This document shows positions 10,963 through 51,774 of a stretch of 64,000 bases of DNA, in pieces. The stretch is from IMG/VR virus record IMGVR_UViG_3300030433_001936, positions 1 through 64,000 of that record, one strand, 5' to 3'. This DNA is from a virus. Its lineage: Duplodnaviria; Caudoviricetes. Position 1 is the first letter of the stretch, and each line of letters starts with the position of its first letter. A program made the translations under genes and the position numbers. Under the pieces are notes generated by a model, which was not told the DNA's origin, searched no databases, and was given only the letters and a program-made list of their open reading frames with translations.

Positions 10963-12135
10963 TCAGTTTCCTTTCAAGATGTCTTGGATGCGAGAGAATG
11001 CGTCATTGCTGTTTTGGAAAATGCCCGCTTGGTTGCCTTGTGCAAACATGCCAGGTCCCTGTGGTGCTTGTTGTTGCGCCACTTGTCCTGCCGTTGCGGG
11101 GTCAACCTGTGCGGTTGGTTCACGCTCAATGAGTTCGTGTTGACCTTGATTGGGGTCAGGTGTTGAAACGGGTGCGCCCGATGCTGCTGTTGGTGGAGTC
11201 GCTGCTGGTGGTGCTTGTTGTGGTGGTTGTTGTTGTGCCTGTGCAGCGCGTTGTTGTTGCCGTGCCAAAGCAGGGTTTTGTTGTTGCAGGTTTGCTTGTT
11301 GTTGTGCGCCCGCTTCTTGGAATGCGTTTTGCACACCTTGAACCGCTTGTTGACCCATGTTCTTCATGCCTTGAACGGCTTTTCCGCCCAAATTCTTCAT
11401 AGCGCCAGCGACTTGACCGACTTTGCCCATTGCACCTTGTCCCGTTTGGAAATTTTGTGCTTGTTGTTGTGCGCCACTGCGGGCTGCTTGTGCGCCTTGC
11501 TTAGCAGCGTCCGTTGCCAATTGGTTCAAACCGCCTTCGCCACCCATGACTTTGCCGTATTGACCCGATTGCTTTCCTTTGTGGGCTTGATACATTGAAC
11601 CGCCAATGCCAGCAAGAACTCCGAGTGGGTTGCCCGTAGCCAATCCGCCCGCTAGTCCTGCACCCATGTGGCGAAGACCACGACCCAATGCGGGAGCAGC
11701 CCTTTCCTTAGCCCATGTTTTGAATCGTGAACCGAGTCCTTCCTTTGGTGCGTGAGATTGCATGTTGCCACCCGCAGTGCCTTGAGATGCACCGCCCGAC
11801 AATTGTTCCGACCCTTCTTGGAATTGCGGAAGCATGTTCATTGCTGCTTGGCGGTTTGCTTGTCCCAATCCCTTGCCAGGGCGTTGTGGATTGAAATTTT
11901 TGATGATTGAATCAATGTAAGTGAAGACGGCAGTGGACTTTGTGAACGAATCGCCTTGCAATACCCATGCCATTTCTTGGCGTGTGCCGTCATATTTGTG
12001 CATGACTTCAACAGCAGCGCGGTCTGCGCCTTTGTAAAGCGATTCAAGTTCAAACTCCCGAACAACACGGTTGTAAATTGCTTCATTCAACAAACTACGA
12101 CTTTCGTATCCGCCACGGGGGTTGTAATTGCTCAT
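10963..12135 (-). CDS. Hypothetical Q/A/G-rich low-complexity protein
   Basis: 390 aa with a long Gln/Ala/Gly-rich tract. Confidence 0.7.
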   Translation of the reverse strand: MSNYNPRGGYESRSLLNEAIYNRVVREFELESLYKGADRAAVEVMHKYDGTRQEMAWVLQGDSFTKSTAVFTYIDSIIKNFNPQRPGKGLGQANRQAAMNMLPQFQEGSEQLSGGASQGTAGGNMQSHAPKEGLGSRFKTWAKERAAPALGRGLRHMGAGLAGGLATGNPLGVLAGIGGSMYQAHKGKQSGQYGKVMGGEGGLNQLATDAAKQGAQAARSGAQQQAQNFQTGQGAMGKVGQVAGAMKNLGGKAVQGMKNMGQQAVQGVQNAFQEAGAQQQANLQQQNPALARQQQRAAQAQQQPPQQAPPAATPPTAASGAPVSTPDPNQGQHELIEREPTAQVDPATAGQVAQQQAPQGPGMFAQGNQAGIFQNSNDAFSRIQDILKGN

Positions 12136-14183: not shown

Positions 14184-15522
14184 TTGAACCTCCCCTTCTG
14201 CTATACATGCCAGCAGCGTCAGCGCCCCAATATCGGGGGTCGTCTTCGGGGTCAGATTCGGTTGCACCTTCGTTTCGTGATGTCTTTTGAGGTCCGTTGG
14301 ACGGTGCTTCAACCATACCGTCATTGTTTGACCCACCACCTGATATGCCCATCAAACTCTTTCGTGGCAATCGTGATAACAAGTGCTTCAGTTCACGAAG
14401 CAGGTCTTTGAATTCGTGTGTGTCAATGGATGTGAGACCAGGTCCGAGATGACGGACATATGCCTTTGACACTTCCACCAATTCTTCCAATTCTGCCTTT
14501 GCAATCCGTGGCATACGGGGCGCACGGGGCTTTGGTGGACCTCGCAATGCACGGCTAGGACCTTGACGCATTGCTTGAGCCTGACCTGGCATCAATCGCA
14601 TCCTTCCCGACCCTGCTTGACCTGGATATCTCAATTGTCCCAATTGTTCACGGGGAGCGTGTGGTGTATATGGCAACATAACACCTGCACCACCAGCGCC
14701 ACGGTATGCGGATTGACGACCCAACCATGAAATGTACTTGCCAGGGTTTTCCAACCGACCAGGTCTTGGCTTTCCGACCAATGAACCGACACCCAAGTGG
14801 TGTGGGCTTAGCGTATATCGCTGACGCATCATACCCGTCTTTGAATTTGAACGAAGGCTTTTGCCTCCCTGCCCTTTGATGTTGCCAAACAACCGTTGGT
14901 GAACGGATGCACGACGCTTTGTTGAAGCCCACGGACTTCTTCCACCGATTGGTCGTGGGAATGCAGTTACTCGGTGTGCTTTTCTGCCTTTGACACCGCC
15001 AGGTCCGATACCTGACCGCATTTTGCGGTCAACAGATTCCAATGTTTCAGTGCCAACGGGGTCGCCCAACACTTTGAGAAGCAAACCGTCCCATGCTTGT
15101 TCCATTGCTTCGCTTCGTGTCAGTCCGAATGCACCCATTGTCGGCAGTTGTGGTGGGATTTCACCCATTGCCGACCCCGTGCCTGTTCGTGCGCCAACGG
15201 CTTGGTCAAGATTTTCGCCCATGCTTCCCGCAGGACCTGTGTTTTCCGAGATTTCGTTTTGTTCAGCCAACGGTGTGGATTCTTCAAACGGTTCTTCTTC
15301 GTGGTCTTTCTTTGTTGAAATTTTGAGATGTTGCAATCCCGTCCACTTGCGTTGTTGTTCTTCACGGGATTCCTTCTTCTTTTGCGATTCCAACTCCCTT
15401 TGGTCGGGGTCGCCAGGTGCATAGACTTCTTCATCATCCGCATACATGAATTCTTCAGATTCACTGCGCGGACTATACATCCGTGTGTCAGAACCAGTGC
15501 CTTGCTTCACGATTCTTGACAC
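14176..15522 (-). CDS. Hypothetical protein with acidic N-terminus, basic G/R-rich middle and an AW..LK-like motif
   Basis: 448 aa; MEQAWDGLLLK at 15073-15105. Confidence 0.7.
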   Translation of the reverse strand: MSRIVKQGTGSDTRMYSPRSESEEFMYADDEEVYAPGDPDQRELESQKKKESREEQQRKWTGLQHLKISTKKDHEEEPFEESTPLAEQNEISENTGPAGSMGENLDQAVGARTGTGSAMGEIPPQLPTMGAFGLTRSEAMEQAWDGLLLKVLGDPVGTETLESVDRKMRSGIGPGGVKGRKAHRVTAFPRPIGGRSPWASTKRRASVHQRLFGNIKGQGGKSLRSNSKTGMMRQRYTLSPHHLGVGSLVGKPRPGRLENPGKYISWLGRQSAYRGAGGAGVMLPYTPHAPREQLGQLRYPGQAGSGRMRLMPGQAQAMRQGPSRALRGPPKPRAPRMPRIAKAELEELVEVSKAYVRHLGPGLTSIDTHEFKDLLRELKHLLSRLPRKSLMGISGGGSNNDGMVEAPSNGPQKTSRNEGATESDPEDDPRYWGADAAGMYSRRGGSNV

Positions 15523-15533
15523 ACCGAACCACC

Positions 15534-15941
15534 TTACTGCATTTTTAGTAGTTCGCTAAGGACTTGCGCCCCAAAGTGTTCGGCTTTGGTTGTGATTTCG
15601 GGTTTGCTGTCCCGTGTTTTGGCTTCAGCCCGCAACTCGGACAACGCAGACGATGTCGTGTCGTCGTCGTCATTAGCGGGGTTATCAATGTGTGCCATAA
15701 CTTCGGGGTGGTATCCTACGCTTCCACCTTCATCATGCCCTGGTTTGTGTGGCATGCCGTGATGTGGGTCATCAGGGTTTTCGGGGAAAACGCCAACACT
15801 GTGTGGAACATAAATCAGTTCGTCTTTGTAGCGAAACACATCATGCGGTTCATCATCCTTCATTTCTGTTCGCAAAAACTTGGCATCATCGGGCAAACTA
15901 ACGCCCTTTAGAATACTCATCATGTCTTTCAGTACACTCAT
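15534..15941 (-). CDS. Hypothetical protein
   Basis: 135 aa, 4-nt overlap with its upstream neighbour. Confidence 0.65.
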   Translation of the reverse strand: MSVLKDMMSILKGVSLPDDAKFLRTEMKDDEPHDVFRYKDELIYVPHSVGVFPENPDDPHHGMPHKPGHDEGGSVGYHPEVMAHIDNPANDDDDTTSSALSELRAEAKTRDSKPEITTKAEHFGAQVLSELLKMQ

Positions 15942-17072: not shown

Positions 17073-17120
17073 TGGTCAGTCGTAGCAATGGTTATGAAAT
17101 GAACCTTTTGTAAAACTACT

Positions 17121-17363: not shown

Positions 17364-17620
17364 CGAGATAACCGACGATATACCGTCCCCGCCAATACGA
17401 AGAACCCCATGACCATGACGACAATCCATGTGAGATTGTCGCCACTCAATTGGTTGCCACGGGTTGCCAAAATAAGGAATGCACCGAGGAATAGTGAAAT
17501 CACTTGCACCATAATCATGTCAACCATGACACTGTTGCTTGTGTCATGCATGATTTTCCAGCCATCGGATAGTTGACCCACAATGCTTGTTTGTGATTTT
17601 GGTTGTTGACCTGGTTGCAA
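17360..17620 (-). CDS. Small two-TM membrane protein (holin-like topology)
   Basis: Two hydrophobic segments (MIMVQVISLFLGAFLILA; LTWIVVMVMGFFVLAGTVY) and a basic C-terminus. Confidence 0.65.
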   Translation of the reverse strand: MQPGQQPKSQTSIVGQLSDGWKIMHDTSNSVMVDMIMVQVISLFLGAFLILATRGNQLSGDNLTWIVVMVMGFFVLAGTVYRRLSR

Positions 17621-17627
17621 AATTGTA

Positions 17628-18236
17628 TCACCGTCCCGTCAATACTGACCTTACAAATCCACCCGCACCTTGTCCCACAGATTGCAACACCCCTGGGTCT
17701 GCCAATGCGTTATCCAACATACCTTGCATCATGCTTTGTTGTGCCATTTGCAACAGTTGTTGCTGTTGCATGAGCGATTGTTGCACGGCTTGATTGCAGT
17801 TTGATTGCAATTGCGTCATGTCGGCTTGGATGTTTTCGGGTGATAGCGTTTGCAAAGGCGTTGGCAACGATGTTATGTCAACACACAGGTTGCCGTCTTT
17901 GTCTTCAGTGAATTTTGCGTTGCGAAAAAACTCAACCAACGATAGGTTGACGATGTTCGCAATGATGTTGGTCAGTGTTGCGAGATTTTGACCCGATAGG
18001 AATTGTTCAACGGGGCGTTGTTGATGCAACAACCGTGAAACGATTTCCAATTCGGATGGTGGCATCACGGGTTGGTTTGGATTGTACTGACCGCCCGTTG
18101 CACCCGCCATGAACGAATTCATTGCGGATGATTGTTGCTGATACGAATTGAATTGTGGGTGAGAACCGTATTGCTGACCGCCACCCAATGCCATTGGTTG
18201 TTGCGGTTGGGCTTCTTTGTTGCTGAACCACATCAT
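17628..18236 (-). CDS. Hypothetical Gln-rich helical protein
   Basis: 202 aa in the GTPase operon. Confidence 0.65.
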   Translation of the reverse strand: MMWFSNKEAQPQQPMALGGGQQYGSHPQFNSYQQQSSAMNSFMAGATGGQYNPNQPVMPPSELEIVSRLLHQQRPVEQFLSGQNLATLTNIIANIVNLSLVEFFRNAKFTEDKDGNLCVDITSLPTPLQTLSPENIQADMTQLQSNCNQAVQQSLMQQQQLLQMAQQSMMQGMLDNALADPGVLQSVGQGAGGFVRSVLTGR

Positions 18237-18260
18237 AACACCCCAAGCATTGGCAGTTAA

Positions 18261-19226
18261 TCAGGGCTTCGGCACTGCGGGTGCATTGAATTCCACTTGA
18301 TTTTCTTGAATAAGGTCTTGCAACATGCCAACTTGTGCAACTGCAGGTTGAGCCGAAGGAGCAGCATGCAACAGCGGGCTGTTGTCGCCCAATCGTGCGA
18401 ATTGGCGTTGGTCAAACACAATAACAGTCAAATCATTCATGCCCGTTTCTTTGTTGGTGAAGTGTTGGATGGGAATGCCATCAGCCTTCAACATTCGGAA
18501 GAACTCTTCATATTTGACAAGTTGATGTGGAGTGTTGTCATTGTTTGACTTTCGCACAGCAGCGATTGGCACGGCAACGGTGGATACGCCACGCTTCAAC
18601 TTGTCTTTGAGTGTGCCTTTTTCAGTTTCGTGTGCTTTTTCTTCTTCGTCTTCCCATTGGCAAAGCAAATCGTATAGATGCAAATGTTCGGGGCAATATG
18701 TCGCAGTCAATGTTCGTCCACTGGTCACTCCTTCCCGTGCCAAAAATGCACGGGGTTGCCCACTTACTTGGTCAACGAAATACTTGTCCCAAAGGGACAA
18801 TCCCGTTTCTTCATCACGAATATCGGCATAGATGTTGCCAACGATTTGCAAAAGGTTGCCAACATCACAACCATCAACAGCACACTGCGTGGTGTTGTGA
18901 TTGTATCGGTATTTACCGCCAATCCATCGTCGTGGCGACCACCATTTGCGTTTCATTGGTTTCAACAACTGATACGCTTGCTTGATGTCTTTTCGTCTTC
19001 GTTTCTTTGGGTTCGGATGCACACTTGGATAGAAATTGACCTTCGGTATTTCAATGTGCGGTGTTTGTTCGGCAGCAGCCATCATTGCACCCTGCGCTTG
19101 AGCAGCGCTTTGTAGTTGATGCACATTCATGTTGGATTCGGCTGATAACTTCACCAAATCTGCTTGTGTGTTCATTGCCAATTGGTTGTATTGCATTTGT
19201 CGGTTCTTATCAAACATTTTTTTCAA
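18261..19226 (-). CDS. Hypothetical protein with possible Zn site
   Basis: 321 aa; CAVDGC and YCPEHLH; 4-nt overlap with the GTPase gene. Confidence 0.7.
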   Translation of the reverse strand: MKKMFDKNRQMQYNQLAMNTQADLVKLSAESNMNVHQLQSAAQAQGAMMAAAEQTPHIEIPKVNFYPSVHPNPKKRRRKDIKQAYQLLKPMKRKWWSPRRWIGGKYRYNHNTTQCAVDGCDVGNLLQIVGNIYADIRDEETGLSLWDKYFVDQVSGQPRAFLAREGVTSGRTLTATYCPEHLHLYDLLCQWEDEEEKAHETEKGTLKDKLKRGVSTVAVPIAAVRKSNNDNTPHQLVKYEEFFRMLKADGIPIQHFTNKETGMNDLTVIVFDQRQFARLGDNSPLLHAAPSAQPAVAQVGMLQDLIQENQVEFNAPAVPKP

Positions 19227-19936
19227 CTCCCTAACATGTTCATGAGACTGTTCTCAACATTCCACCCGATGCGGGTTGCCATCATACTCACCTGACATAC
19301 AACCCCATGCTTCTGCAATTTTATCATTGCGGGTCGGAATGGGTCAAAAATGCGGTGTTCCCGCAATCGTTGTTGTTGCCAAAGCACACTTGCTTGCTCA
19401 TCCCACCACTTGTCGGCTTTGTTTGCAACCAAAAATACGAACTTGGGTTTGTACTTCTTCCCTTTGATTCGTCTTGACCACCTTCGGTATCGGTATCTGC
19501 GTTCAATGATTGAATCAACGAGATATTCAAAACCTGCAATGGCATCAACAGCGGCAGTACCACCAGTTCGTGAACGGTCATCAAACATGAAAATGATTCC
19601 TTCCACTTGTCGGTCAACCATATCGTCAACCCATAGCGACCAAAATTTGCGTTCACCACCGAGGTCTGCCGAATGCACCACACGCTTTTTCCCTTCATAT
19701 CGGATACGCTTCCGTGTTGGCATTGGCAAAACATAGTCCTTGCCAATCAGTTTTTTGAAATGGGTGGTTCGGTGTTTTTCGCCCAATTCTTCCATTTCGC
19801 CAGGTGTGGTCATATACATGTCAAGTGTGGTTTTGCCGACTTCGGTAGGTCCGTAAATGCCGACCCTTCGTGGCTTCCAATAATCGTACAACTCTTTGCC
19901 GTAAAGAGCAGCACCGAGCAACACTGTTCCTGCCAA
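19223..19936 (-). CDS. Small GTPase, Ras superfamily, Arf/Sar-like
   Basis: G1 GPTEVGKTT, G3 DLGGE, VEGIIFMFDD, G4 ANKAD, G5-like SMMAT; hydrophobic N-terminal helix. Confidence 0.85.
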   Translation of the reverse strand: MAGTVLLGAALYGKELYDYWKPRRVGIYGPTEVGKTTLDMYMTTPGEMEELGEKHRTTHFKKLIGKDYVLPMPTRKRIRYEGKKRVVHSADLGGERKFWSLWVDDMVDRQVEGIIFMFDDRSRTGGTAAVDAIAGFEYLVDSIIERRYRYRRWSRRIKGKKYKPKFVFLVANKADKWWDEQASVLWQQQRLREHRIFDPFRPAMIKLQKHGVVCQVSMMATRIGWNVENSLMNMLGS

Positions 19937-20176
19937 TCAAAACAACCCCGTAATCCAACCTAGCGTTGAATTTAGAACGATGTTGTAAAGGCTCACATCC
20001 GTGTAGTATTCCACACCCGATGTGATAATAGTTGCAATTGCAGAACAAATCAATGCCTTTACCCAACCCCATGTTCGCTCATACACACGGTCAACTTGAT
20101 TTGCCATGTGCAATTGGCGCAGTGTTCCTTCAACTGCGTCGTCGCTTGGTGTTTTGAATAGCCAACCCATGTTCAT
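19937..20176 (-). CDS. Small membrane protein
   Basis: WGWVKALICSAIATIITSGV hydrophobic segment; abuts the GTPase start. Confidence 0.6.
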   Translation of the reverse strand: MNMGWLFKTPSDDAVEGTLRQLHMANQVDRVYERTWGWVKALICSAIATIITSGVEYYTDVSLYNIVLNSTLGWITGLF

Positions 20177-20757
20177 TCCTTCTTATATCGCTTGTCAGGT
20201 TTGCCATCCTTTGTCAACGGCACTTCTTTTGTCAAATCAACACCGAGATTAACTGCTTCCTTCTTGTCGGTGCGGTGTTTTGGTGGTGGATTGAATTCGG
20301 ACGGTTGTTCTTTGAATGTCTGTGGTTTCGGCTCAACAATCTGTGGGATGGCTTCATACCCTGACATTGACATTGCCATATACGCATCGGGGTTCTCTTC
20401 CAACATCCGCAACTGCTTTTCCATTTGCATCTGTCGCATTTTCAGTTCGGTTTCCAACTGTGCATTTGCAAATTGCGAGTTCATTTCACGCAATCGTGCA
20501 TCACGCACTCTTTGGGTGCGTTGCCATTGGGCTTTGCTATCCATGTTGTCTTGTAGCAACAACTTGTAAAAGAAATACGACATACCTTGCAGGGTAAATG
20601 CCCCCATTGCATATGTCAAAGCGTTGCTATATGTGTCTTGACTTTTCAGCCACAAATCTGCGTCAAACACGGCAATAGCAGCCCCAACCAAAATGGATAC
20701 GAAGCCGATAAAACCCATGACACGCAGTATGTCTTCATTCGTTTGAGCGTCTGTCAT
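20173..20757 (-). CDS. Two-TM membrane protein with cytoplasmic coiled coil
   Basis: Start moved to ATG 20757 (MTDAQTNE); two hydrophobic helices, then RDARLREMNSQFANAQLETELKMRQMQMEKQL. Confidence 0.7.
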   Translation of the reverse strand: MTDAQTNEDILRVMGFIGFVSILVGAAIAVFDADLWLKSQDTYSNALTYAMGAFTLQGMSYFFYKLLLQDNMDSKAQWQRTQRVRDARLREMNSQFANAQLETELKMRQMQMEKQLRMLEENPDAYMAMSMSGYEAIPQIVEPKPQTFKEQPSEFNPPPKHRTDKKEAVNLGVDLTKEVPLTKDGKPDKRYKKE

Positions 20758-20815
20758 ACAGTTCTCCCTCGGTATATGGGTGCAATTGCCCCTCAATAAC
20801 CATTCCCATGAAACA

Positions 20816-20891
20816 GTATTGATATTATCATGTATTGTGTAAGACAATAATAGCCGTATTATTCCCATATGATACATGGGAATATCAATAC
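20816..20891. repeat. AT-rich dispersed element, copy A, with internal inverted repeat
   Basis: GTATTGATATTATCATGTATTGTGTAAGACAATAATAG (20816-20853); GTATTGATATT is mirrored by AATATCAATAC at 20881-20891. Confidence 0.75.
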
Positions 20892-20981
20892 GATGGGTGG
20901 GTCGGACGGGAGTGAAGGCGAGAGAGAACCAATCACACGGGCATCCGCCCGACCCGCATGCATGCTGGCTTATACGGCATA

Positions 20982-21689
20982 TCAGGCTTGGCGTTGACGA
21001 CTACCCGTTGATTGGGGTTCATCAGCGCGACCTCGGACACCAACACGAGCGGGCGCTCGCATTTCAGCACGACGAGATGTTTGGGCAAACGGATTGCTTG
21101 GTTGTTCATTTCGTTGTTTGAATGATTCCGCCAAATTGTCAAGAATGTCATCAGCGTCCCCATCTTCAGCCATTTCAGCATGGCGATGTTCGTGGGGAGC
21201 AGCCTCAACACGACCAGGAATTTGTGCGGTCAGTGTTCCCGTCTTCATGCCAGGGGCGATACCGCCTTGCACATCGGGCGAAGTGCCAGGGAAAAATTGA
21301 CGGGATGGGATACCGAGTCTTCGCATTGCACCCATCAATCCACCACCGCCACGGGCTTTGGGTTCACGACCCGAATGGGGAATGGGTGGGCGACCTTCTT
21401 CCATGCGAGCCATATGATGTGCGGGGACATCTGCGCCACCACGCATTCTTTCGTAGTACTTTTCCGATGCGGGTGTGCGACCTACGCCACCCATACCTGA
21501 CCCATCATCGCTTGGGTATCCACGGGGGACACCACGGCTACCGAACATACCGCCACCCAAATCGGGTGGGGTGATTCCACGGCTTGCCATAGCCAATTCT
21601 TTAGGTCCAATCGCTTTCATCACTGCGACTCGCATATCACTGCGTAGTGCAATGTAATTTATGAACATGTCTGCCATACGGGGTATCAT
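20982..21689 (-). CDS. Hypothetical G/R/P-rich low-complexity protein (start uncertain)
   Basis: 235-aa ORF; the true start is probably downstream because it overlaps the divergent 21661 gene. Confidence 0.55.
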   Translation of the reverse strand: MIPRMADMFINYIALRSDMRVAVMKAIGPKELAMASRGITPPDLGGGMFGSRGVPRGYPSDDGSGMGGVGRTPASEKYYERMRGGADVPAHHMARMEEGRPPIPHSGREPKARGGGGLMGAMRRLGIPSRQFFPGTSPDVQGGIAPGMKTGTLTAQIPGRVEAAPHEHRHAEMAEDGDADDILDNLAESFKQRNEQPSNPFAQTSRRAEMRAPARVGVRGRADEPQSTGSRQRQA

Positions 21690-21975
21690 GGCGGGTCAAT
21701 CCGAACAAGCACACCGCCACAAAATTCAGTATGATACTGAATACGAATCGTCCCCCGAGCGCATCAAATATCGGGAAGAACTCAACCGTGAGCGAAGGCG
21801 AAGGGGCATTTACGGGCGTGGTGGACCTGATGTTAGCCACACCCGTGCAAACACATTGGTGTTGGAAAGTCCACACAAAAATCGTGCGCGACACTTCAAA
21901 GAGCGTGGGACTTTGAAATCAAACCCCGCACCCATTGACCAAGCGTGGTCAGTTTTGAAGCATCAATTGGATTGA
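21661..21975 (+). CDS. Basic HNH-like protein with C-terminal AW..LK tag
   Basis: YESSPERIKYREELNRERR..GPDVSH..LVLESPHKNRAR resembles degenerate phage HNH proteins; PIDQAWSVLK at the end. Confidence 0.55.
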   Translation: MNMSAIRGIMAGQSEQAHRHKIQYDTEYESSPERIKYREELNRERRRRGIYGRGGPDVSHTRANTLVLESPHKNRARHFKERGTLKSNPAPIDQAWSVLKHQLD

Positions 21976-22765
21976 CAGTGCCAACGCCATTGTCATTCGC
22001 CCATTGCAACAATGTTTCAGTTGCCAAATTTGCACCCGACCCTTTGACAAACGGACACCCACCGATACCGCCAATGCTTGTGTCAAACTGACGAATGCCA
22101 ACATCGTATGCCATTTGCACATTGCCGATAAGCGAATCCCCATGTTCGTTTTCATGCAAATGCACTGCCCACTTTGTTGACGGCATACGGGCAATGATGT
22201 CGCCAATGCGTTGAATGGATTGAGCATCGGCAATACCCGCAGTATCTGACAACACAACGGTGTAGCCCAACAATGCCGATTGTTGCAACACATTGGCTAT
22301 GAACAAATCGTCATACTGACCGTCAGTGGGACAACCGAATGCGTGTGAGATATACACACGGATGTTTTCTTTGGGAATACCCCACAACATGCTACGGTAT
22401 GTTGCATGCAACACTGCCAACGATGAATTAAAATTTTCAGCGTTGAATGTTTCCGATGGCGATAGGCACACATTGATGTTGGTTGCGCCCACTGCTTTTG
22501 CCCGTTCCAATCCTTTTTCGTTTGGCACTAGCACACTCAAATGACACGGCAATTTTTTGATTTCATTAAATACTGTTGCAGATGCGCTCATGTTTGGCAC
22601 AAGTTTGGGATGCACAAAACTGCCGACTTCTATATTGCGGATTCCACAATCATACAATTGTTCTATCATGCTGACTTTGTCAGCCACTGACACATCACAC
22701 TTTGCAGATTGCAGACCATCACGAGGTCCGACTTCGTAAATCTCAATCGTACTGCTTCCCTTCAT
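21896..22765 (-). CDS. hmgL: Hydroxymethylglutaryl-CoA lyase (DRE-TIM family), auxiliary metabolic gene
   Basis: IYEVGPRDGLQS, IEVGSFVHPKLVPNM, LSDTAG, AVHLH, GIGGCPF..GANLATE; start moved to ATG 22765. Confidence 0.88.
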   Translation of the reverse strand: MKGSSTIEIYEVGPRDGLQSAKCDVSVADKVSMIEQLYDCGIRNIEVGSFVHPKLVPNMSASATVFNEIKKLPCHLSVLVPNEKGLERAKAVGATNINVCLSPSETFNAENFNSSLAVLHATYRSMLWGIPKENIRVYISHAFGCPTDGQYDDLFIANVLQQSALLGYTVVLSDTAGIADAQSIQRIGDIIARMPSTKWAVHLHENEHGDSLIGNVQMAYDVGIRQFDTSIGGIGGCPFVKGSGANLATETLLQWANDNGVGTVNPIDASKLTTLGQWVRGLISKSHAL

Positions 22766-22938
22766 GACGCAATCCACCCATGCACATGGCTTGCAGTTCT
22801 TCGTCATTTTGGAAAACAACAACATCTTTTCCGATGTCATCAAACAACGAAATTATATGCTCAATCAACGCTAATCCAACAATTGCGGTAATGACCCAAC
22901 CCCACATATGAAGGGGTATGTCGGTGCAAAAAATAAAC

Positions 22939-25900
22939 CTATCTGCCTTTGAGTAGTGAATCCCACGCTAAATCAATGGGGTCGCCACGAGTGAAACCTG
23001 TTTCTTCATTCCATCGTGTGCCTTGAAATGTCGGAATGTTTTGTTCGCCTTCCGTTTGGTCGTGTTCACTTGGCAAGTTCAATCCCATTTCACCTGCGAT
23101 GTTCCTTTCATTGGGTGGGTGCGGTTCATTGTCAAACGCATTCGTCATTCTGCGTGTGCGTCGTGGGACTCGTGTGCGTCCTTGAATTTCTTCTTGTTCA
23201 CGCTTCATGTCAGCCATCATGTCGTCGTTATCGGGCATGATACCCATACGAGTGTCGGGCATACCCGTGTTTGGGTTGATGAAGACTTCAAGACCAGGGT
23301 TGGGTATCTCCATGCCCGCTTCTTTCATGGCTTCCAAAATTTCGGGTGGGATGCCATCCATTGTCAGTGCTTCGGGATAGTTCTGCATAAGCCACCGTGC
23401 AAAGTCAACATTGTCGTCTTCCAAATCCATTTCCACTGCAGGTCTTGAATATGGGCGCACTCTTCTCATCATCTCAAACGGGTGGTGTCCGTGTGCCGCT
23501 GCATCTTCAAGGAAACCGTGCATTCGTGCCATTGCTTTATCGTCAATATCATTGTAGGTGATGTCGCCCGCTTCCAATGCTTCAAACAACGCTTGCATAG
23601 TCTTTGGGTCTGCCTTTGCACCAGTGGCTAATGATTTGAAGTGGTCAAATGCCAAATCTTCGGGTTCGTTGTCAACTAATATCTCGGGCAAGTCCATCCC
23701 AAACCTTTCATTCAACATGTTGCTGAGTGCGTAGTGCATTGGGTGTTGTGAATTGAATTCGTTTGGTTGCATTTGAGATGCAAGCAAATCAGCATATTTG
23801 TTGGGGTCGTTGTAAAACGCCATCATTTCTTCATCGCTCAACGGACTACCAGGATGCCCGCCCGCTGCTTGTCGCTCAAACATCGCTTCCATTTCTTTTC
23901 GGGCGCGTTCTTGTGCGCGTTGTTGCCGAATCTGCTCTTCTTCTTTTCGTCGCTTACCACGGTTGCGAGCCAATGACCCACTAAGGAATGCAGTTTTACC
24001 CGCTTGGTCTAGTCCCGCTTTTCCTTCGGGTCGCCTTTTTCCTTGTGGCTTTCCTGCTTTGCGGTCTTCGGCACTCAATCCCATACGACCTTGTTGCGCG
24101 ATTTTGTTGCGCTCAGCCTCTTTGCGTCCACTGCTTTGTGGTCGCACATCACGGTTTTTGCGATTCCTTGCGCCAGTGCCACGCAATCGTTCTTCAAGCA
24201 CATCGCCCCTCTCTTCTTGGTCTTCTTCATCCCAATCCAACTTGGCAAACAATGTAGCCCATGATTTCAATGTGTCAGTGCTAAATTGCGGTTCGTCAAA
24301 AGCGCGTGGATAACCTGTAGTGTCAATTGCTTCTTCATTGTCAGGACCGCCTTGGGTCGGGTAATTTCGCCCACCTTGTCCCGCTCTTTTCCGATAAGGG
24401 GCGAGAGAGTCATAGGAATTTCGTGCGCGTCCCCCTCTCAATTCCACTTTTGTACTGGGTTTTTCAAAAATCGGACCTGGACTGTTTGCTTCCAATGCTT
24501 CTTGTAATGCTTGTTCACTTACTCTTTCCATCTGTCTGCTTCTCATGCCCTGTATAGCAGGGTGCATAGTTTGACGGGAAAAATGTCCGTGTACTTGCTC
24601 AATATCAGCCTTGAGAACTGCCCATGCAATATCCATCGGTTCGCCCGCATTCTTTTGGTCGTCATCGCCTTCTTCGTCTTTGATGTCAAACAACGACTTC
24701 TTTGGTTTTTCAGCACCTTTGGCTCGTTGTGATGTGTTCCTTCGTGCGGGCGGTGCAGGTCTTGGATTCTTCTTTTGAGATTCAGCCAATGCGCCAATGT
24801 CAGCGAACATGCGTTCTTCATTGCGCTTTTGTTCTTCGGTCATCACTGACCCTTTGGGGTCAACGGGCAGATTCGCCATTGCTTGTTCACGATTCTTCTG
24901 TTCTCTTGCCCTTCTTCGGTCAGCCAATTTTTGTGCGGGCGTTCTTTGACCGCTTTCTTCCAAATCAGTTGTGATTGCACCGCCAGTGGCTTCCGCCATC
25001 TCCCGTGCCATCTCAAGCAATCTGTCGTTTTCTTTTTCTTCTTCAGTTCGCTCGTCCCGTGGCAAATGCCGTCTTGTGTAGTTTCGTAGTGGCGCTCGCA
25101 TTGGCAATCCTTCAACTCGTTTGGTGTCTTTGACACCCGCTTCTCGTTGTTTTGCACTTTGCACATTCATGCGCCCCGTTTTGAATTCACGACCATGCAC
25201 ACGACCAATGGCTTCATTCAATCGGTCTTCTGCCGACATTTCATCCAATTTTTTGCGTTGCTTTGGTGTGATGACACGCACACGCTTCCCTGCGTGGTCT
25301 TTGTCATCACCGATAAATTCACGATACCAATTCGCAGTTTCTTCACCACGGTCTTTCACTGAAACCTTATTCGCACCGAGTCTGCGTTGACCTTTTTCGG
25401 GTGCAAGCAGATTGTGAACATCAACGGGAATGCCACGACCCATTGCTTGCATCATTGCATCATTCGTCCAATTGTCATGCAGTGGATGGTGAATTCCCAA
25501 CATGTGCGTGGCATTGTCAAGAATTTTACCGTTGCGTGTGCCGATGGCAGTGTATTTTCCATCGCCTTTGAAATCGGGCGGGATAACTTTGACGGGAATG
25601 TTGTTGTCATTCGCCCATCGCTCAACCATTTCATCAACGCCACCATGACCGCCCGTGATGATTGAATCGGGCATACCGTTCTTGTCAATCCATGCACCCA
25701 TCTGGTCATCAATAACACCCAATGCGTCATAGTACTCATTCAACCGATTCATTGGGTTGATTGGCAACAATTCGTTTGGTGGGAAATTGCCGAAGTCTTT
25801 GTGTCCGAGAACTGCCAAATGTGTTCCTTCCAATTCGGGCTTTGGTGCTGCTGGCGCTGCTGTTTTTGCGGGCGCTCGCACTTTTGCCTTTGGTGCAGTG

Positions 25901-26109
25901 GCGGGTTTGGGTTCGTTGCCCGTTCCGCCAAATTCGGGGGTCAAGTTTGCCATTGTCCCGCCCGTCAACACTGACAACAAATCTTTTGCTTCCGCAATTT
26001 GTCGCTTTTGGTCAGCGTATTCGTCTTCTTCTTCGTCGTCGTCATCGGAAGCATAGTCAAACAATGACTTCTGCTTCAGCATATACCATGCCTTGTCAAT
26101 AGCCGACAT
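22939..26109 (-). CDS. Large multi-segment protein with YspA/SLOG-like domain and three AW..LK tags
   Basis: Start moved to ATG 26109 (MSAIDKAWYMLK). SLOG-like LAVLGHKDF..IITGGHGGVDEMVERWANDNNIPVKVIPPDF..RNGKILDNATHMLGI. Confidence 0.75.
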   Translation of the reverse strand: MSAIDKAWYMLKQKSLFDYASDDDDEEEDEYADQKRQIAEAKDLLSVLTGGTMANLTPEFGGTGNEPKPATAPKAKVRAPAKTAAPAAPKPELEGTHLAVLGHKDFGNFPPNELLPINPMNRLNEYYDALGVIDDQMGAWIDKNGMPDSIITGGHGGVDEMVERWANDNNIPVKVIPPDFKGDGKYTAIGTRNGKILDNATHMLGIHHPLHDNWTNDAMMQAMGRGIPVDVHNLLAPEKGQRRLGANKVSVKDRGEETANWYREFIGDDKDHAGKRVRVITPKQRKKLDEMSAEDRLNEAIGRVHGREFKTGRMNVQSAKQREAGVKDTKRVEGLPMRAPLRNYTRRHLPRDERTEEEKENDRLLEMAREMAEATGGAITTDLEESGQRTPAQKLADRRRAREQKNREQAMANLPVDPKGSVMTEEQKRNEERMFADIGALAESQKKNPRPAPPARRNTSQRAKGAEKPKKSLFDIKDEEGDDDQKNAGEPMDIAWAVLKADIEQVHGHFSRQTMHPAIQGMRSRQMERVSEQALQEALEANSPGPIFEKPSTKVELRGGRARNSYDSLAPYRKRAGQGGRNYPTQGGPDNEEAIDTTGYPRAFDEPQFSTDTLKSWATLFAKLDWDEEDQEERGDVLEERLRGTGARNRKNRDVRPQSSGRKEAERNKIAQQGRMGLSAEDRKAGKPQGKRRPEGKAGLDQAGKTAFLSGSLARNRGKRRKEEEQIRQQRAQERARKEMEAMFERQAAGGHPGSPLSDEEMMAFYNDPNKYADLLASQMQPNEFNSQHPMHYALSNMLNERFGMDLPEILVDNEPEDLAFDHFKSLATGAKADPKTMQALFEALEAGDITYNDIDDKAMARMHGFLEDAAAHGHHPFEMMRRVRPYSRPAVEMDLEDDNVDFARWLMQNYPEALTMDGIPPEILEAMKEAGMEIPNPGLEVFINPNTGMPDTRMGIMPDNDDMMADMKREQEEIQGRTRVPRRTRRMTNAFDNEPHPPNERNIAGEMGLNLPSEHDQTEGEQNIPTFQGTRWNEETGFTRGDPIDLAWDSLLKGR

Positions 26110-26140
26110 ATGTAGTGGGATGTCAGCGCAGGTTATGGAG

Positions 26141-26605
26141 TTAACCACGATTTCGCCTTCTTTTTTCCGCCAACACTTTTTCAACCGCTTTGCGGTCAAA
26201 TTGGCGCAAATGTGCGACATTGCGTGGCATCACCACAATTTGTGATGGGTCGGGCATGTCGTCTTTACCGACAACACGCACCCCACCACCGTCTTTGATA
26301 TTCCGTGCAGGTCCTGTTGTTGGCATATCACCAATCGGTGCATCACCACGAATACCCACTGCAACATAATTGCCTTCGGGGTCGGCTCGCCATCGTGATG
26401 CACCATGACCATCTGCGCCCGATGGGTCATCGCCCATCATTGACCAAAATTGCTCGGGATACTTGCCTTCCAAATAGTCGGCAATGTGTTGCAATGGTTG
26501 TGCGCTGATTTGCTGAATTGGTGGTTGGTCGGGGTAATCGGGAATCCAATTGTACAACTTTGTTTGTCGTTTCAACAACAACCATGCAGTGTCAATTGGC
26601 AACAT
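26141..26605 (-). CDS. Hypothetical protein with N-terminal AW..LK tag
   Basis: MLPIDTAWLLLK; start moved to ATG 26605. Confidence 0.7.
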   Translation of the reverse strand: MLPIDTAWLLLKRQTKLYNWIPDYPDQPPIQQISAQPLQHIADYLEGKYPEQFWSMMGDDPSGADGHGASRWRADPEGNYVAVGIRGDAPIGDMPTTGPARNIKDGGGVRVVGKDDMPDPSQIVVMPRNVAHLRQFDRKAVEKVLAEKRRRNRG

Positions 26606-26610
26606 GCATA

Positions 26611-27408
26611 TCACGGAAACCTTTCGTCATATGCCTGTTGTGCATCAGCAATCGCTTGCAATGCGCTTTGCTCATAATCACCAGTTATTGCTTCTCGCTT
26701 GTCAGTCATTGCATCACCCTTTTTCCGTGCGTCTGCAATTGCATCCATTTCATCACTATTAGTGCGTCCATGACTGTGTGGATAAAGTGCTAATTGCCTT
26801 CGCAATTTGTTTGGGTTCATATTTGCCAATCTCGGATAATTCTTACTGTATGCTTCTAATGCATCTTCTAGTGCCGTTGCCCATACATTGTTGGACGGGC
26901 TATCGCCCAATGGCACTTGTTCAGTCGTGCGATAACCGCCACGGGATGTCGCAGTTTTGCGTTTATCCATGTCCCCACGAGTCCATCGTCGTGGCACACC
27001 TTCATGTATTGGCAATCTGCTCAATTCATCTTTTTGCTCAATGGCGTTTCTCAAAGCACGACCACGCAGTTTGCCTTTCATCACACTCCATGCCATATCA
27101 ATGGGGTCGCCTTTGACCATCGTTGGCTTTCCACCAACACCTTGCTTTTTACTGCGTTTGCGTTGCGTCATTGCCCGCTTTTCGCCTTTGCTGTGATGCC
27201 GTGCAAGTTTTGGTGTCTTGCTACTGACACGCTTTGATGGTCGGCACTTTGGGTATCCACGCTTGCTTTTGTTCGCTTTACTGCGACCACACGGGGGATG
27301 CGAACCGTCTTTGTTCGTGCGTGATACATCCACCCACTTTTCTTTGAACCAACGATTCAGGTTTTTGACAACCATGACATCTTGGCAACCGCACAATTCA
27401 CCATCCAT
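26611..27408 (-). CDS. Basic phage-type domain (RWFKEKWVD..CGR..YPKCRP) plus internal AW..MK tag
   Basis: LNRWFKEKWVDVS..PCGRS..YPKCRPSKRVSSKTPK, then DPIDMAWSVMK. Confidence 0.7.
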   Translation of the reverse strand: MDGELCGCQDVMVVKNLNRWFKEKWVDVSRTNKDGSHPPCGRSKANKSKRGYPKCRPSKRVSSKTPKLARHHSKGEKRAMTQRKRSKKQGVGGKPTMVKGDPIDMAWSVMKGKLRGRALRNAIEQKDELSRLPIHEGVPRRWTRGDMDKRKTATSRGGYRTTEQVPLGDSPSNNVWATALEDALEAYSKNYPRLANMNPNKLRRQLALYPHSHGRTNSDEMDAIADARKKGDAMTDKREAITGDYEQSALQAIADAQQAYDERFP

Positions 27409-28130
27409 TAACCAAACCTCCGTCTGTCTTTTCTTCGTTCAGCGGCAATCAGTTTGTCCCATTGTTCGGCAGTTTTTATGTTATTCGCTCTTCGCAAATG
27501 TGGATTTCTTGCTCGCAATCCCATAATTTCTCTAAACCGTTGTTCTTTTTGCCGTGGGGTCAATTTGTTGGAAGTCAACGATATTGTACCATCCTTTCCA
27601 ACTGATGTGCGAGTCGGTGAATCAAGTTGTTGTATGATGTCCGCGATGCCCCGCATGGGATGGTCTTCGCTAACTCTTTGACCAAACATAGCAGCAAGCA
27701 TCCCCTTTGCACCTGCGTTTCTATGTTGATGAGCATTGAGGTCATGCATCAATTCTCGGTGTGCTGTAAGTGCTGATTCGGGATACTCCATAATGACGGC
27801 TGGGTGTTCGGTTCGTGCAGTTGCATCTATGTCTTGACTATATTTGCCATATTTACTGTCTCTTAAATCGCCCACCCCTGGTTGGTTATCTGTGGTTGCA
27901 TGACCCCATTCGTGTGCGTTCAATCTCGCCAACGCATTTGCAGTGAATTTGTCAGCGTCAGCGTCAGAAAAGCCCATGTTTCGTCCATAAGGCAAAATCG
28001 CAGCCAAATTGACATTTACCGTATCAGTCCACGGGTCATAATGCCCCGCCCTGTCCCGTCCATCAAACTCCAAATTGTAGTCAGCGTCATCACTTTTCAA
28101 AAATGACCAAGCCGTATCAAATGGGGTCAT
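27408..28130 (-). CDS. Putative zincin-like metallopeptidase with N-terminal AW..LK tag
   Basis: MTPFDTAWSFLK; G.YDP..DTVNVNL; HEWGH followed by TEHPA. Confidence 0.55.
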   Translation of the reverse strand: MTPFDTAWSFLKSDDADYNLEFDGRDRAGHYDPWTDTVNVNLAAILPYGRNMGFSDADADKFTANALARLNAHEWGHATTDNQPGVGDLRDSKYGKYSQDIDATARTEHPAVIMEYPESALTAHRELMHDLNAHQHRNAGAKGMLAAMFGQRVSEDHPMRGIADIIQQLDSPTRTSVGKDGTISLTSNKLTPRQKEQRFREIMGLRARNPHLRRANNIKTAEQWDKLIAAERRKDRRRFG

Positions 28131-28318
28131 TTCTTCTTCCCCTTCCCCTTAAACTTGCCACGGCAGTATTGAACTGCCCAACCATTGGCATAAGCGGAAG
28201 GATAGACCTTGAATTTGCGCTTAGCAGCCGCTTTTCCTGCGGGGCATAACTTCTTTTCCAAATGGTCAAACGCAGCGTTTGTAGCAACACACAAATCGCA
28301 ATTGCCACACCCCGTCAT
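28127..28318 (-). CDS. Small basic phage-type protein (YPSAYAN motif)
   Basis: AKRKFKVYPSAYANGWAVQ. Confidence 0.7.
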   Translation of the reverse strand: MTGCGNCDLCVATNAAFDHLEKKLCPAGKAAAKRKFKVYPSAYANGWAVQYCRGKFKGKGKKK

Positions 28319-28322
28319 GTCA

Positions 28323-28859
28323 TCACCACTTCACTTTGTCTGCCCAATACGCTGCTGACATCGGACCTCGTGCGATGTTCTTGCGGTGTCGTGCTTTGAA
28401 TGACCTTTGCCGTGCCTTTTCCTTCGGTGTCTTTGGATTTGCACCCGCACCTGACTTACCTTGTTGACCAAATCGGATGGTTTTCACTTTGCCACCTGAC
28501 CGTGCCACTACAATGTGCGATTTCTTGCCATGACCTGGTGTGCGCTTCGGTTTGTTGTATCCCGACACACCCGCACGGGCAAGCCGTGGGTCTTTTTTGC
28601 CCTTTGCAAATGACGCATTGATACTCTTTCGGAAACGCTTCATCTTCTTCATTTTGCATCCCGTTTCGGGTGTGCAATCGCACATCCCCATTGATGCAAT
28701 GTCGCATAATTCGTCGTCATCTGACGGATAATGCAGTTGCAATGATTTGTTGGTCGTTTCATTTTCCAACTTGCATTCACCATCGGCACAACCGCATCCA
28801 CGGGCTTTGCCTACGCACCCCGTTTTCAAAAACAACCATGCAGTTTCGTGTGCCGTCAT
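28323..28859 (-). CDS. Tagged protein with Cys-rich N-terminus and basic phage-type C-terminal domain
   Basis: MTAHETAWLFLK; KDPRLARAGVSGYNKPKRTP..IRFGQQG..SFKARH..SAAYWADKVKW. Confidence 0.75.
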   Translation of the reverse strand: MTAHETAWLFLKTGCVGKARGCGCADGECKLENETTNKSLQLHYPSDDDELCDIASMGMCDCTPETGCKMKKMKRFRKSINASFAKGKKDPRLARAGVSGYNKPKRTPGHGKKSHIVVARSGGKVKTIRFGQQGKSGAGANPKTPKEKARQRSFKARHRKNIARGPMSAAYWADKVKW

Positions 28860-28890
28860 CACACTACCCGATGCGAAAGAATGCAATAAA

Positions 28891-29502
28891 CTAATCGTTC
28901 TTCAATAATTGCCATGCAATATCCATTGGCTCACCTTTCATTTGGTCTTGCCACGCCATCCGCTCATCTGCATTCTGAATTCCAAAATCGGGATATTCGT
29001 CAGTTTCATTGAAAACTCTGCTCATGGCTTGCTGATTGTTATCTGTGTTGGGTTGCATGTCAATTGATGTATGACCACGCAAATTCAACTCGTCTAACAC
29101 TTGCTTGCGTTCTTCCGCATGCTCAGGCTTAATCATCCACAACAAATTGCCTTCCAATTCTTCCGTAGTGATGTTAGCATACGGGCGTGGGTGCAATCCC
29201 AACTCCATTTGCCGTTGGCGTTCTATCTGTTCGTCTTTGGATTCTTGTGGTTGGGCATCGTCTTCAACTGCACCAATGCTCAACAACAAATCCAACAAAC
29301 CTTGCATCACTTCGGGTGGCATATCATCATCGTCATCGTCATCCACTTTCAACAAACGATACGCCAATTTCATTGGCTCACTGTAGCGGAACATGGCATC
29401 CTTTTCCGAAGAACTACCCCCTTCACCACATCGTTCTTCGCATATCATCCGCTGATGCGGAATCGCATGTTCTTGACCACAATAAAAACAACTGTTGCTC
29501 AT
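28891..29502 (-). CDS. Acidic hypothetical protein with two AW/AY..LK tags
   Basis: EPMKLAYRLLK and EPMDIAWQLLK. Confidence 0.7.
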   Translation of the reverse strand: MSNSCFYCGQEHAIPHQRMICEERCGEGGSSSEKDAMFRYSEPMKLAYRLLKVDDDDDDDMPPEVMQGLLDLLLSIGAVEDDAQPQESKDEQIERQRQMELGLHPRPYANITTEELEGNLLWMIKPEHAEERKQVLDELNLRGHTSIDMQPNTDNNQQAMSRVFNETDEYPDFGIQNADERMAWQDQMKGEPMDIAWQLLKND

Positions 29503-29517
29503 TTTTATGACCCCTTA

Positions 29518-30267
29518 TCACATTCTTCCTGCCTGTCTTTCTGATTCTGCCCACGCTAACCATCGGTCTAATTCCCGTTGGAAATCTTCGGGGTCAATCG
29601 CCAATGTTGGGTCATGACCCACTGCATTGTTGATGTATTTGATTGCGTCATTCATGTATTGATGCCCGTCAGGGTGGTCGTCCATTATCGCATGATGAGC
29701 GAACTGCAACGGCAAATAGTCGGGCATGTGCTGTTCCATCAATTGACGAAACATGCCAGGATGTTTCTGTTGAAGCGCATCAATCCACCCTTGACCCATA
29801 TCAGTGAAACCATCAAGGAATGGCGAGAACTTCATGTCGGGGTTGCGAGCCAACACATGCGGAAGCATTTCAGCCAAGCCTTCAGCGTATCCACGACCAC
29901 GGACATCTTCATCCACATGTAGTGCTAAATCCCGTTCTGTGCTTATGTCAGGTACAGTTTCTTCCGACAACGGGTGATACACAAGTTCACCATTCGGCAT
30001 AAGCGTTGACCCAATTTCCAAACTCCCACGGTATGTAGGTCCGTATGGAGTGGGCTTTTCGCCAATATGCCCAGTCATTTGCCCACGCTCTTTGTCATGC
30101 TCAAAATAAACGGGAACATCCTTTTTCTCTTCGGGGTCATAGAACTGACCTTCATATTCATCCATGTCGTCATCAGTGTTGACCCGTCGCACGGTTTCGT
30201 GCCGTAGTGGGGCTTTGACGACATGCGTTTTGAGAAGCAACCATGCTTGCTCAAACGCCCCCTGCAT
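29518..30267 (-). CDS. Tagged protein with GNAT-like acetyl-CoA-binding motif
   Basis: MQGAFEQAWLLLK; LHVDEDVRGRGYAEGL resembles GNAT motif A. Confidence 0.55.
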   Translation of the reverse strand: MQGAFEQAWLLLKTHVVKAPLRHETVRRVNTDDDMDEYEGQFYDPEEKKDVPVYFEHDKERGQMTGHIGEKPTPYGPTYRGSLEIGSTLMPNGELVYHPLSEETVPDISTERDLALHVDEDVRGRGYAEGLAEMLPHVLARNPDMKFSPFLDGFTDMGQGWIDALQQKHPGMFRQLMEQHMPDYLPLQFAHHAIMDDHPDGHQYMNDAIKYINNAVGHDPTLAIDPEDFQRELDRWLAWAESERQAGRM

Positions 30268-51045: not shown

Positions 51046-51774
51046 ATGTCAGTGGCGTTTGACAAGGCGTGGGCGGTATTGAAAGCCGACCCAGCGCAGT
51101 CCGTATTCATCGCCCAAAGGGACGACCCCATAGAATATCAAACTGAACGCTATGGTGAACCAAGAACGGTTGATGATGATTGGCATAAGCGATTGGGGAC
51201 ATTGCACCCTGCACTTCAATGGCATCGTGATAAGATGTTCAGTCCCAATCGGGCTATCCGCCATGCGAATTTGCGAGTGTCCCCCGAACTAGACCACGAC
51301 CCCGAAAATCGCATCATTCAAAACATCAAGGATGGTGCTAAAACAGGTAAAGAATTGTTTGAAGGGTTGACTTTGGAACAGATTCACGGAATCATGGATG
51401 TGCAACATGACCGTAGCAGAGGGGGCAGAATTCTTGATGTTCCAACAATGAGGTCTCCTGACCTTGACAGATGGAATGAGTTTGAGGCACGACCTGAATC
51501 AATGCAATGGCTACGAAACAAATTCGGTAGCGCACGAACTGATGGAAAAGAACCCCGTGATGATATTGGACGAGGGAAGGCATACATGGGCTTCGGTGGA
51601 GGAATGGATGATGCATCCCGATATGAAGACCAGAAGTGGCAATGGGATGGGCATGACAATTACTTCACCCGCAATTTTGACCCATACAACAAACCTGTAG
51701 GTCCAGCACTTACCGCACAAGAAATGGAAGACCTCCGAAGACAAGGAGGACAATTCTTATCAGAGTTCTCTTGA
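51046..51774 (+). CDS. Hypothetical protein with N-terminal AW..LK tag
   Basis: MSVAFDKAWAVLKAD; start moved to ATG 51046. Confidence 0.7.
   Translation: MSVAFDKAWAVLKADPAQSVFIAQRDDPIEYQTERYGEPRTVDDDWHKRLGTLHPALQWHRDKMFSPNRAIRHANLRVSPELDHDPENRIIQNIKDGAKTGKELFEGLTLEQIHGIMDVQHDRSRGGRILDVPTMRSPDLDRWNEFEARPESMQWLRNKFGSARTDGKEPRDDIGRGKAYMGFGGGMDDASRYEDQKWQWDGHDNYFTRNFDPYNKPVGPALTAQEMEDLRRQGGQFLSEFS

Follow-up and report, generated by a model that had tools for sequence, protein, structure and literature searches.

A short peptide on unrelated proteins of magrovirus-like archaeal tailed viruses is a candidate address for loading proteins into the virus head

Internal proteins IPI-III and Alt of phage T4 bear a capsid-targeting sequence (CTS), which the gp21 head protease removes (PMC7411985). 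In the giant phages SPN3US and phiKZ, the prohead protease cuts many head-internal or ejection proteins at one consensus, and the propeptides are thought to target them to the prohead (PMC7411985). Phage P1 builds accessory anti-defence Dar proteins into its head and delivers them with its DNA; some are processed by the head protease, among them DarA, which is bound to the inner capsid surface (PMC12810830). Here we describe a peptide of 10-12 residues, hereafter the tag, that is common to about a dozen unrelated proteins of an uncultured virus and lies at their ends or at module junctions. The window that we analysed comprises bases 1-64000 of the 74,759-bp IMG/VR virus record IMGVR_UViG_3300030433_001936, whose completeness is estimated at 62%.

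Judging by its genes, this virus is magrovirus-like, of the uncultured ocean archaeal type. The window encodes a portal protein (5815-7692), a T4-type large terminase (9519-10946), an SNF2 helicase and a family B DNA polymerase, with genes transcribed leftward from ~30.3 kb and rightward from 30.8 kb. A search with the terminase returned 70 related viral contigs (identity 35-93%), and three relatives of ~105-110 kb (G001, G002 and G003; CheckV completeness 98-100%) were taken whole, G002 with direct terminal repeats. Downstream of the portal, all three encode a fusion of S78 protease and scaffold as well as a capsid protein of the HK97 type; the record stops short of these genes. By the relatives' capsid protein, the closest cultured viruses are the haloarchaeal viruses HVTV-1, HCTV-1 and HCTV-5 (33-35% identity), in agreement with the relation that Philosof et al. 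2017 reported for magroviruses (PMC5434244). Megablast of 10 kb against a phage collection gave no match. Magroviruses are among the most abundant archaeal viruses in the surface ocean, the majority of their genes are of unknown function and, to our knowledge, none is in culture.

A preliminary description of the window had listed 13 peptides built around D-x-A-W-x-x-L-K, and a six-frame regular-expression scan recovered all of them in place, the one at 15073-15105 by a further scan (Table 1). This last copy is present but its placement is not N-terminal: it occupies approximately residues 139-150 of a conserved protein of 448 amino acids (aa; 14176-15522). Over all six frames of the complete record there are 11 occurrences of the strict pattern [DE]xAWx(2-3)[LM]K, compared with a mean of 0.075 and a maximum of 1 in 200 shuffles (an excess of ~150-fold), and every tag match falls within a long open reading frame (ORF). 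The tags use different codons (mean pairwise nucleotide identity 62%), which bears out the claim that conservation is at the peptide level. A profile made from tag instances set ~37 clear matches apart from noise in four genomes. Gene 10963-12135 ends in an extra, diverged C-terminal copy, D-A-F-...-D-I-L-K-G-N-stop; its positional counterpart in G002 closes with a full tag.

Across 167 distinct instances, the tag unit reads x-x-P-h-[D/E]-x-A-W-x-h-L-K (h, hydrophobic). The motif as first written was therefore too short, omitting the Pro two residues before the acidic residue and the hydrophobic residue before Leu-Lys. The N-terminal form (n = 76) is M-[S/T/N/G]-[P/A]-[F/I/M]-[D/E]-x-A-W-x-[L/V]-L-K, often with A-D-P next, and has Met at position -4 in 52 of the 76 leaders; the junction and C-terminal form (n = 91) is [K/A/T]-[G/S]-E-P-M-D-[L/I]-A-W-[R/Q]-L-L-K. 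After C-terminal copies the stop comes 2-4 residues past the Lys, and stand-alone genes retain the tag either directly after Met or 2-4 residues from the C-terminus. The spacer from W to L-K is three residues at 22948 and four at 15073. In the junction form, 81 of 97 codons at position -4 fit R-G-Y (mostly GGC or AGC), so the Gly/Ser alternation can be put down to single transitions and common descent of the copies. We also considered whether the G-E-P-M of junction tags hides a ribosome-binding site and start codon, and rejected this: the codons are not GGTGA-like, and the same G-E-P-M occurs in C-terminal tags, which also counters an internal start. In an AlphaFold2 model of the tagged H-E-x-x-H protein, the tag is unstructured (predicted local distance difference test score (pLDDT) < 50, residues 1-19); such predicted disorder is expected of a peptide that folds upon binding. 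We interpret the tag as a short linear motif, portable between proteins of these archaeal tailed viruses, in the form of a helix-forming amphipathic stretch capped by Pro.

The carriers have little else in common. When 31 tagged proteins were aligned, the tag was all that they shared, the flanks having a mean column identity of 8%; four of the 31 have a Pfam family, and no family is common to them. The carriers are hence unrelated, as had been claimed, and the tag as part of a larger folded domain is ruled out. Compared with untagged proteins, the carriers are more hydrophilic and have a higher content of disorder-promoting residues (p ~1e-13 to 1e-15). Carriers in the window include a DUF5872 protein, a phrog_7595-domain protein and, on the opposite strand, a phrog_6437 protein (E 3.6e-18). 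Several domain labels in the preliminary description fared less well: SLOG comes down to a weak SLOG/YAcAr match below the Pfam cut-off (residues 180-218 of a 1093-aa ORF), GNAT-like (gene 29518-30267) to a weak lead from the ESM Atlas, a language model, and HNH-like to a PHROG of unknown function. The HExxH carrier (27408-28130) stood, its His-Glu-His being invariant in 14 homologues. This protein alone as query retrieved no related loci, its AlphaFold2 model has a mean pLDDT of 57, too low for a fold search, and four tagged proteins compared with PDB sequences gave nothing with E < 0.3.

The 448-aa core protein, whose gene lies upstream of the terminase by two genes, is rich in Gly, Pro and Arg and for the most part of low complexity. 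Its 63 matches in related loci align from residue 7-16 on, and its two ends are conserved (N-terminus G-S-D-T-R-x-Y-N-P-R-S-E-S; C-terminus G-A-T-E ... W-G-A-H-P). At a second position in this family most members have S-[D/E]-I-L-K-A alone and one has a full tag. The product could be an internal or DNA-associated head protein. The N-terminus of a post-portal protein of 1536+ aa (D-S-A-Y-D-F-H-L-R) was rejected as a tag, being a conserved orthologous helix that is different in G002.

The three complete relatives hold 10-15 tags each, all in coding frames. One junction-form DNA pattern found 54 loci in IMG/VR (<1 expected by chance), all 54 of which have genes in common with magrovirus-like viruses, and a single IMG/VR locus of 6.5 kb contains nine tags. 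An N-terminal-form pattern run against 185,579 prokaryote species genomes gave 72 matches, about chance level, the majority of them in IS630/Tc1-type transposases or out-of-frame sequence. These transposases (Acidobacteriota and others; L096, L097, L099, L138, L147) carry P-D-x-N-P-I-E-x-A-W-x-K-L-K, a look-alike of the N-terminal tag; the likeness is probably convergence on a Pro-capped helix, there being no DDE domain in the viral proteins. Nor is the tag a host motif. Among 301 genomes (~500 Mb) from the order of a Poseidoniales metagenome-assembled genome (MAG), the presumed host order, three matches to the general pattern fell in two genomes that were chosen for their match, and none in the other 299. 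One of the three, a perfect tag (P-M-D-R-A-W-A-V-L-K), is on a contig of 2.8 kb that had been assigned to a MAG of the sampled order (G006:C67:1268-1297; L164), and this contig is probably a magrovirus fragment mis-binned with the host. We saw no tags in the 100 of 102 kb of HVTV-1 that were scanned, or in the distant terminase relatives L067 and L071, fragments just 24-41% complete. Confinement to these viruses, with none in HVTV-1 and almost none in the host order, argues for an invention of the virus lineage. The magrovirus literature that we searched does not mention the tag, a text search on Poseidoniales virus motifs returned nothing relevant, and we regard the tag as new to that literature.

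Tags often coincide with boundaries between modules that occur elsewhere as separate genes, as would be expected of a cleavage site. The gene 26141-26605, which begins with a tag, corresponds to residues 197-333 of a 355-aa G001 protein, directly after the internal tag of the latter, and gene 29518-30267 matches the segment past a tag variant inside a G001 protein of 494 aa. For the 1093-aa ORF with three tags, G001 has two genes, the division falling near the middle tag. In two database proteins (P0009 and P0010), a single chain contains DUF5872, the phrog_6437 domain, one tag and an H-E-x-x-H domain; in the record the same modules are three genes, with a tag of its own ending the phrog_6437 gene and another beginning the H-E-x-x-H gene. 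One G002 protein runs domain, tag, zinc finger, tag, zinc finger, tag, domain. In this 577-aa protein (L078:2975-4705) the zinc fingers are two near-identical DnaJ-type CxxCxGxG modules, each preceded by a tag with Met for Trp, and a canonical third tag stands before the C-terminal domain.

The tagged gene set turns over fast. Between the record and G001, whose terminases are 90% identical, tagged proteins are 31-71% identical or missing, whereas the untagged neighbours compared are mostly 55-84% identical. In a strain 90-97% identical to the record, 375 bases at 24246-24622 are replaced in frame by 21, which encode N-L-L-K-A-M-L, the replacement starting just past the middle tag's Trp codon. 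At 26599-27112 of the same strain, 44 bases stand in place of 512, and the ends of the swap adjoin two tags, at the junction in 26611-27408 and at the N-terminus of 26141-26605. Exchange of modules between strains seems to break at tags.

The ending of the tag recurs in core head proteins. A search with the protease found 80 relatives (loci L222-L301), among which were 71 capsid genes, and the protease matches Pfam Peptidase_S78. Its leader is hypervariable, with 51 variants in the 80 loci (for example L223:4001-4090), yet all 51 variants end in h-[L/I/V]-K; the next residue is G, A or S, and the catalytic domain lies 4-7 residues on. Many of these leaders read M-(A/L)-I-L-...-P-h-h-L-K and resemble a tag minus its middle. 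At the boundary between protease and scaffold, the conserved domain ends in F-R-I-L-K (rarely I-I-K or F-K-I-L-K), after which comes an acidic linker that varies. In the capsid protein, the N-arm has [D/E]-[I/L]-L-K-A-D-[A/S]-P in 71 of 71 genes, ~35 residues from the start; its K-A-D is kept in HVTV-1, and A-D(-P) follows many N-terminal tags in the same way. The string h-L-K-A-[D/N] was observed 11 times (1.8 expected), 5 times in tags and 3 times in capsid proteins. An AlphaFold2 model of the protease is folded over residues 31-165 (pLDDT ~70-78) and unstructured in the leader (1-29) and the boundary (168-189), so both sites would be accessible. From their sequences, the three h-L-K spots (leader end, protease/scaffold boundary and capsid N-arm) are candidate processing sites. 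In HK97 gp5, residues 103 and 104 are Lys and Ser, and it is between these that the HK97 protease, the S78 archetype, cuts. We had expected late proteins to avoid h-L-K and found the opposite: observed over expected is 2.55 in late-strand proteins and 0.99 in other genes, with a peak in the first 30 residues. The C-terminal tail of the scaffold was tried as a further tag copy and rejected; it bears a loose likeness only (W, acidic, aliphatic, basic). A C-terminal targeting tail of the HK97 protease was reportedly described by Duda et al. in 2013.

Tagged genes sit almost exclusively on the morphogenetic strand. Over four genomes, each with one morphogenetic-strand and one replication block, ~34 tagged genes are in the former and 2 in the latter, so that the motif is not equally common in replication genes; gene 51046-51774 is the only tagged one of the record's replication block. 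The largest cluster of tags is at the start of the morphogenetic-strand block in the record, G001 and G003, and in G002 tagged genes come after the capsid gene and after a 5,545-aa giant gene. Further relatives have them between terminase and portal, 4-6 kb upstream of the terminase or 4-5 kb downstream of the protease. Contigs of the 90-97% identical strain in an RNA library span the whole stretch at flat depth, which is uninformative on transcription or timing.

Table 1. Tags and a candidate minimal site in the window, with coordinates, strand and profile support.
Feature	Coordinates	Strand	Support
N-terminal tag, gene 29518-30267 (249 aa, possible GNAT-like lead)	30229..30255	-	13.3 bits
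Degenerate junction tag (K for D, Y for W), gene 28891-29502; then poly-Asp linker	29347..29373	-	
C-terminal tag, gene 28891-29502 (203 aa); stop two residues on	28900..28926	-	18.8 bits
N-terminal tag, gene 28323-28859 (Cys-rich part and phrog_7595 basic domain)	28824..28850	-	
N-terminal tag, gene 27408-28130 (240 aa, H-E-x-x-H)	28095..28121	-	18.6 bits
Junction tag, gene 26611-27408 (DUF5872 N-terminal domain, tag, C-terminal domain)	27076..27102	-	17.8 bits
N-terminal tag, gene 26141-26605	26570..26596	-	scan and tag profile
N-terminal tag, 1056-aa three-tag protein 22939-26109	26074..26100	-	
Mid-protein junction tag, 22939-26109; gene boundary in G001	24610..24636	-	16.7 bits
C-terminal tag, 22939-26109; three-residue spacer; stop two residues on	22948..22977	-	
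C-terminal tag, gene 21661-21975 (phrog_6437 domain); stop four residues on	21934..21960	+	
Junction tag, four-residue spacer, in largely disordered 448-aa core protein 14176-15522	15073..15105	-	
Diverged C-terminal tag, gene 10963-12135 (directly upstream of large terminase)	10972..11004	-	
N-terminal tag, gene 51046-51774 (242 aa, no family)	51058..51084	+	14.1 bits
Small late gene, each end a bare h-L-K (M-S-V-L-K... / ...L-L-K-M-Q-stop); candidate minimal site	15534..15941	-	

The plus-strand gene 21661-21975 converges on an HMG-CoA-lyase-like gene on the minus strand (21896-22843), the ORFs overlapping by 80 bases, and its tag codons are antisense to the final codons of the lyase-like ORF. 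In the relatives, giant ORFs of 5,545-5,980 aa follow the tail-region genes (G001 35359-53301, G002 7627-24264); the right end of the record, outside the window (73428-74759), is homologous to residues 4925-5107 of the G002 giant ORF.

We propose that the tag may be a docking peptide combined with a maturation-protease site, which would load accessory proteins into the prohead in the manner of the T4 CTS; we hold this reading with about even confidence. The tag, disordered on its own, would fold on one common viral receptor in the assembling prohead, most likely the scaffold or the HK97-fold capsid protein's inner face, and any tagged module would thereby be co-assembled into the head. The closing h-L-K would form P3-P1 of the site at which the S78 (HK97-type) head maturation protease cuts, with N-terminal tags being clipped off and multi-module proteins being cut into pieces, each of which would retain a C-terminal tag. 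Since such an address would be valid at either end or at a junction, modules could be freely fused, split and swapped, which would explain the rapid turnover of the tagged gene set. Two features of tag placement bear on the two halves of this proposal. That full tags are kept at the ends of stand-alone genes suggests a need for the peptide itself and not only for a cut between modules, and points to docking; placement at junctions, together with an ending shared with core head proteins, points to a cut site as well. The placement of tagged genes among head genes is consistent with head-internal proteins, as is the character of the carriers, by analogy with the proteins bearing the T4 CTS and with the P1 Dar proteins. 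We infer in this way binding to a head component, cleavage after the Lys, presence in the virion and ejection, and the 'ejected effectors' of the preliminary description is likewise an inferred label.

Several observations weigh against this proposal. The cluster at 21.6-30.3 kb opens the leftward block, adjoins the divergent control region and has non-structural neighbours (HMG-CoA lyase-like, Arf-like GTPase cassette), so that it could be early instead of late, and two tagged genes are within replication blocks. A tag serving purely as a head address need occur only once in a polypeptide, but there are proteins with three. The C-terminal tail of the scaffold is not scored by the hidden Markov model of the tag in this clade, and the h-L-K site is very short, and its conservation in the capsid protein may be structural. 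In a rival reading, the tag docks its carriers on a common hub unrelated to the capsid (the virus's Arf-like GTPase/membrane cassette as a virus-built compartment, a viral or host chaperone, or another host factor used in takeover), h-L-K then being part of a binding helix and not a cut site. This is unlikely in our judgement. In its favour, besides its control-region and non-structural neighbours and the two genes in replication blocks, the main cluster is directly upstream of the Arf-like cassette (17.4-20.8 kb), the tag looks in the structure model like a disordered binding motif, and terminal or junction placement on many unrelated carriers is typical of hub-binding peptides. However, absence from host genomes means that no host motif is being mimicked, tagged genes of the relatives are embedded among terminase, portal, capsid and tail genes, and a hub would leave unexplained why the same h-L-K ending stands at three candidate protease/capsid processing sites.

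That recurrence, along with tags at module junctions where genes fuse and divide, could also be read to mean that the tag is a processing site only, at which multi-module precursors are cut by a viral protease (the S78 head protease or a tagged zinc protease), as in adenovirus, with no addressing involved. The second site of the 448-aa family, mostly a bare S-[D/E]-I-L-K-A with the full tag in one member, points the same way. We consider this less likely again: full tags stand 2-4 residues from a stop or right after Met, where cutting achieves almost nothing, their invariant upstream part (P, D/E, A, W) exceeds the minimal site of the core proteins, and the H-E-x-x-H protein, missing from G001 and G003, cannot be a general processing enzyme. 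It is improbable, in our view, that the tag is a virus-encoded sorting code that sends shuffling modules to a compartment or hub made by the Arf-like GTPase/membrane cassette and not to the capsid, with h-L-K serving regulated release; if true, an archaeal virus would have invented a short-peptide targeting system with exon-like module exchange at the tags. Very improbable is a scheme in which tags bind one another and gather their carriers into one mixed protein body with no separate receptor. The amphipathic helix pattern (h at 1, A-W at 4-5, h-L at 7-8) and the several proteins with 2-4 tags, potential cross-linkers, would suit it, but 9-10 residues make a short helix for stable self-association, the tag is without structure in AlphaFold2, and neither the invariant Lys nor the ending in common with protease and capsid sites would be explained. 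Finally, the look-alike helix N-P-I-E-x-A-W-x-K-L-K of the IS630/Tc1-type DDE transposases might suggest a chance or compositional pattern, or the tip of a larger folded domain. This is already refuted by the excess over shuffles and the unrelated flanks, and tagged viral proteins match no transposase family and have no DDE domain around their tags.

The tag puts one readable label on 10-15% of magrovirus genes and marks a candidate set of head-packaged, possibly injected proteins, which includes putative nucleotide-binding, zinc-protease and acetyltransferase-like modules. It is a direct means of finding such proteins in any magrovirus contig, and it suggests a route for the quick exchange of accessory modules. 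Were the cargo-loading proposal correct, a 12-residue capsid-packing tag would be useful for protein encapsulation, and the tag would be the first code for cargo addressing to be reported from an archaeal virus, one that, unlike that of T4, works at either end and at junctions.

Of the known systems, the T4 CTS is similar in being a short common peptide on several unrelated accessory proteins that form a variable cargo set. Binding to the prohead core and clipping at a protease consensus also used in the capsid protein are likenesses proposed here. The CTS is strictly N-terminal and its site ends in Glu, whereas the magrovirus tag is N-terminal in 76 of 167 instances and at a junction or C-terminus in 91 of 167, ends in Leu-Lys and marks 10-15 proteins per genome. 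The machinery is not matched to the gp21 type either: the relatives' protease is Peptidase_S78 of the HK97 type, there is no sequence similarity and the host is archaeal. The propeptides of SPN3US and phiKZ are long (>100 residues) and not one common short peptide, and their cleavage motif ends in Glu. Loading of the P1 Dar proteins is ordered and protein-specific, without a common short tag such as that of magroviruses. The adenovirus protease recognizes one short consensus on many virion precursors, which it cuts inside the capsid during maturation, but virus realm and protease are unrelated and the sites are not terminal address peptides. Encapsulin cargo peptides, which serve a shell that is not a virus, work at either terminus in different systems, are uncleaved and usually have a Gly-Ser-Leu-rich consensus; no consensus of that type is visible in P-h-[D/E]-x-A-W-x-h-L-K. 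Like the magrovirus tag, they are short terminal peptides on unrelated cargo; they dock on the inner face of an HK97-fold shell, as the tag may do, and cargo loading by the tag, if true, would link phage cargo loading with encapsulin cargo peptides, both in HK97-fold shells.

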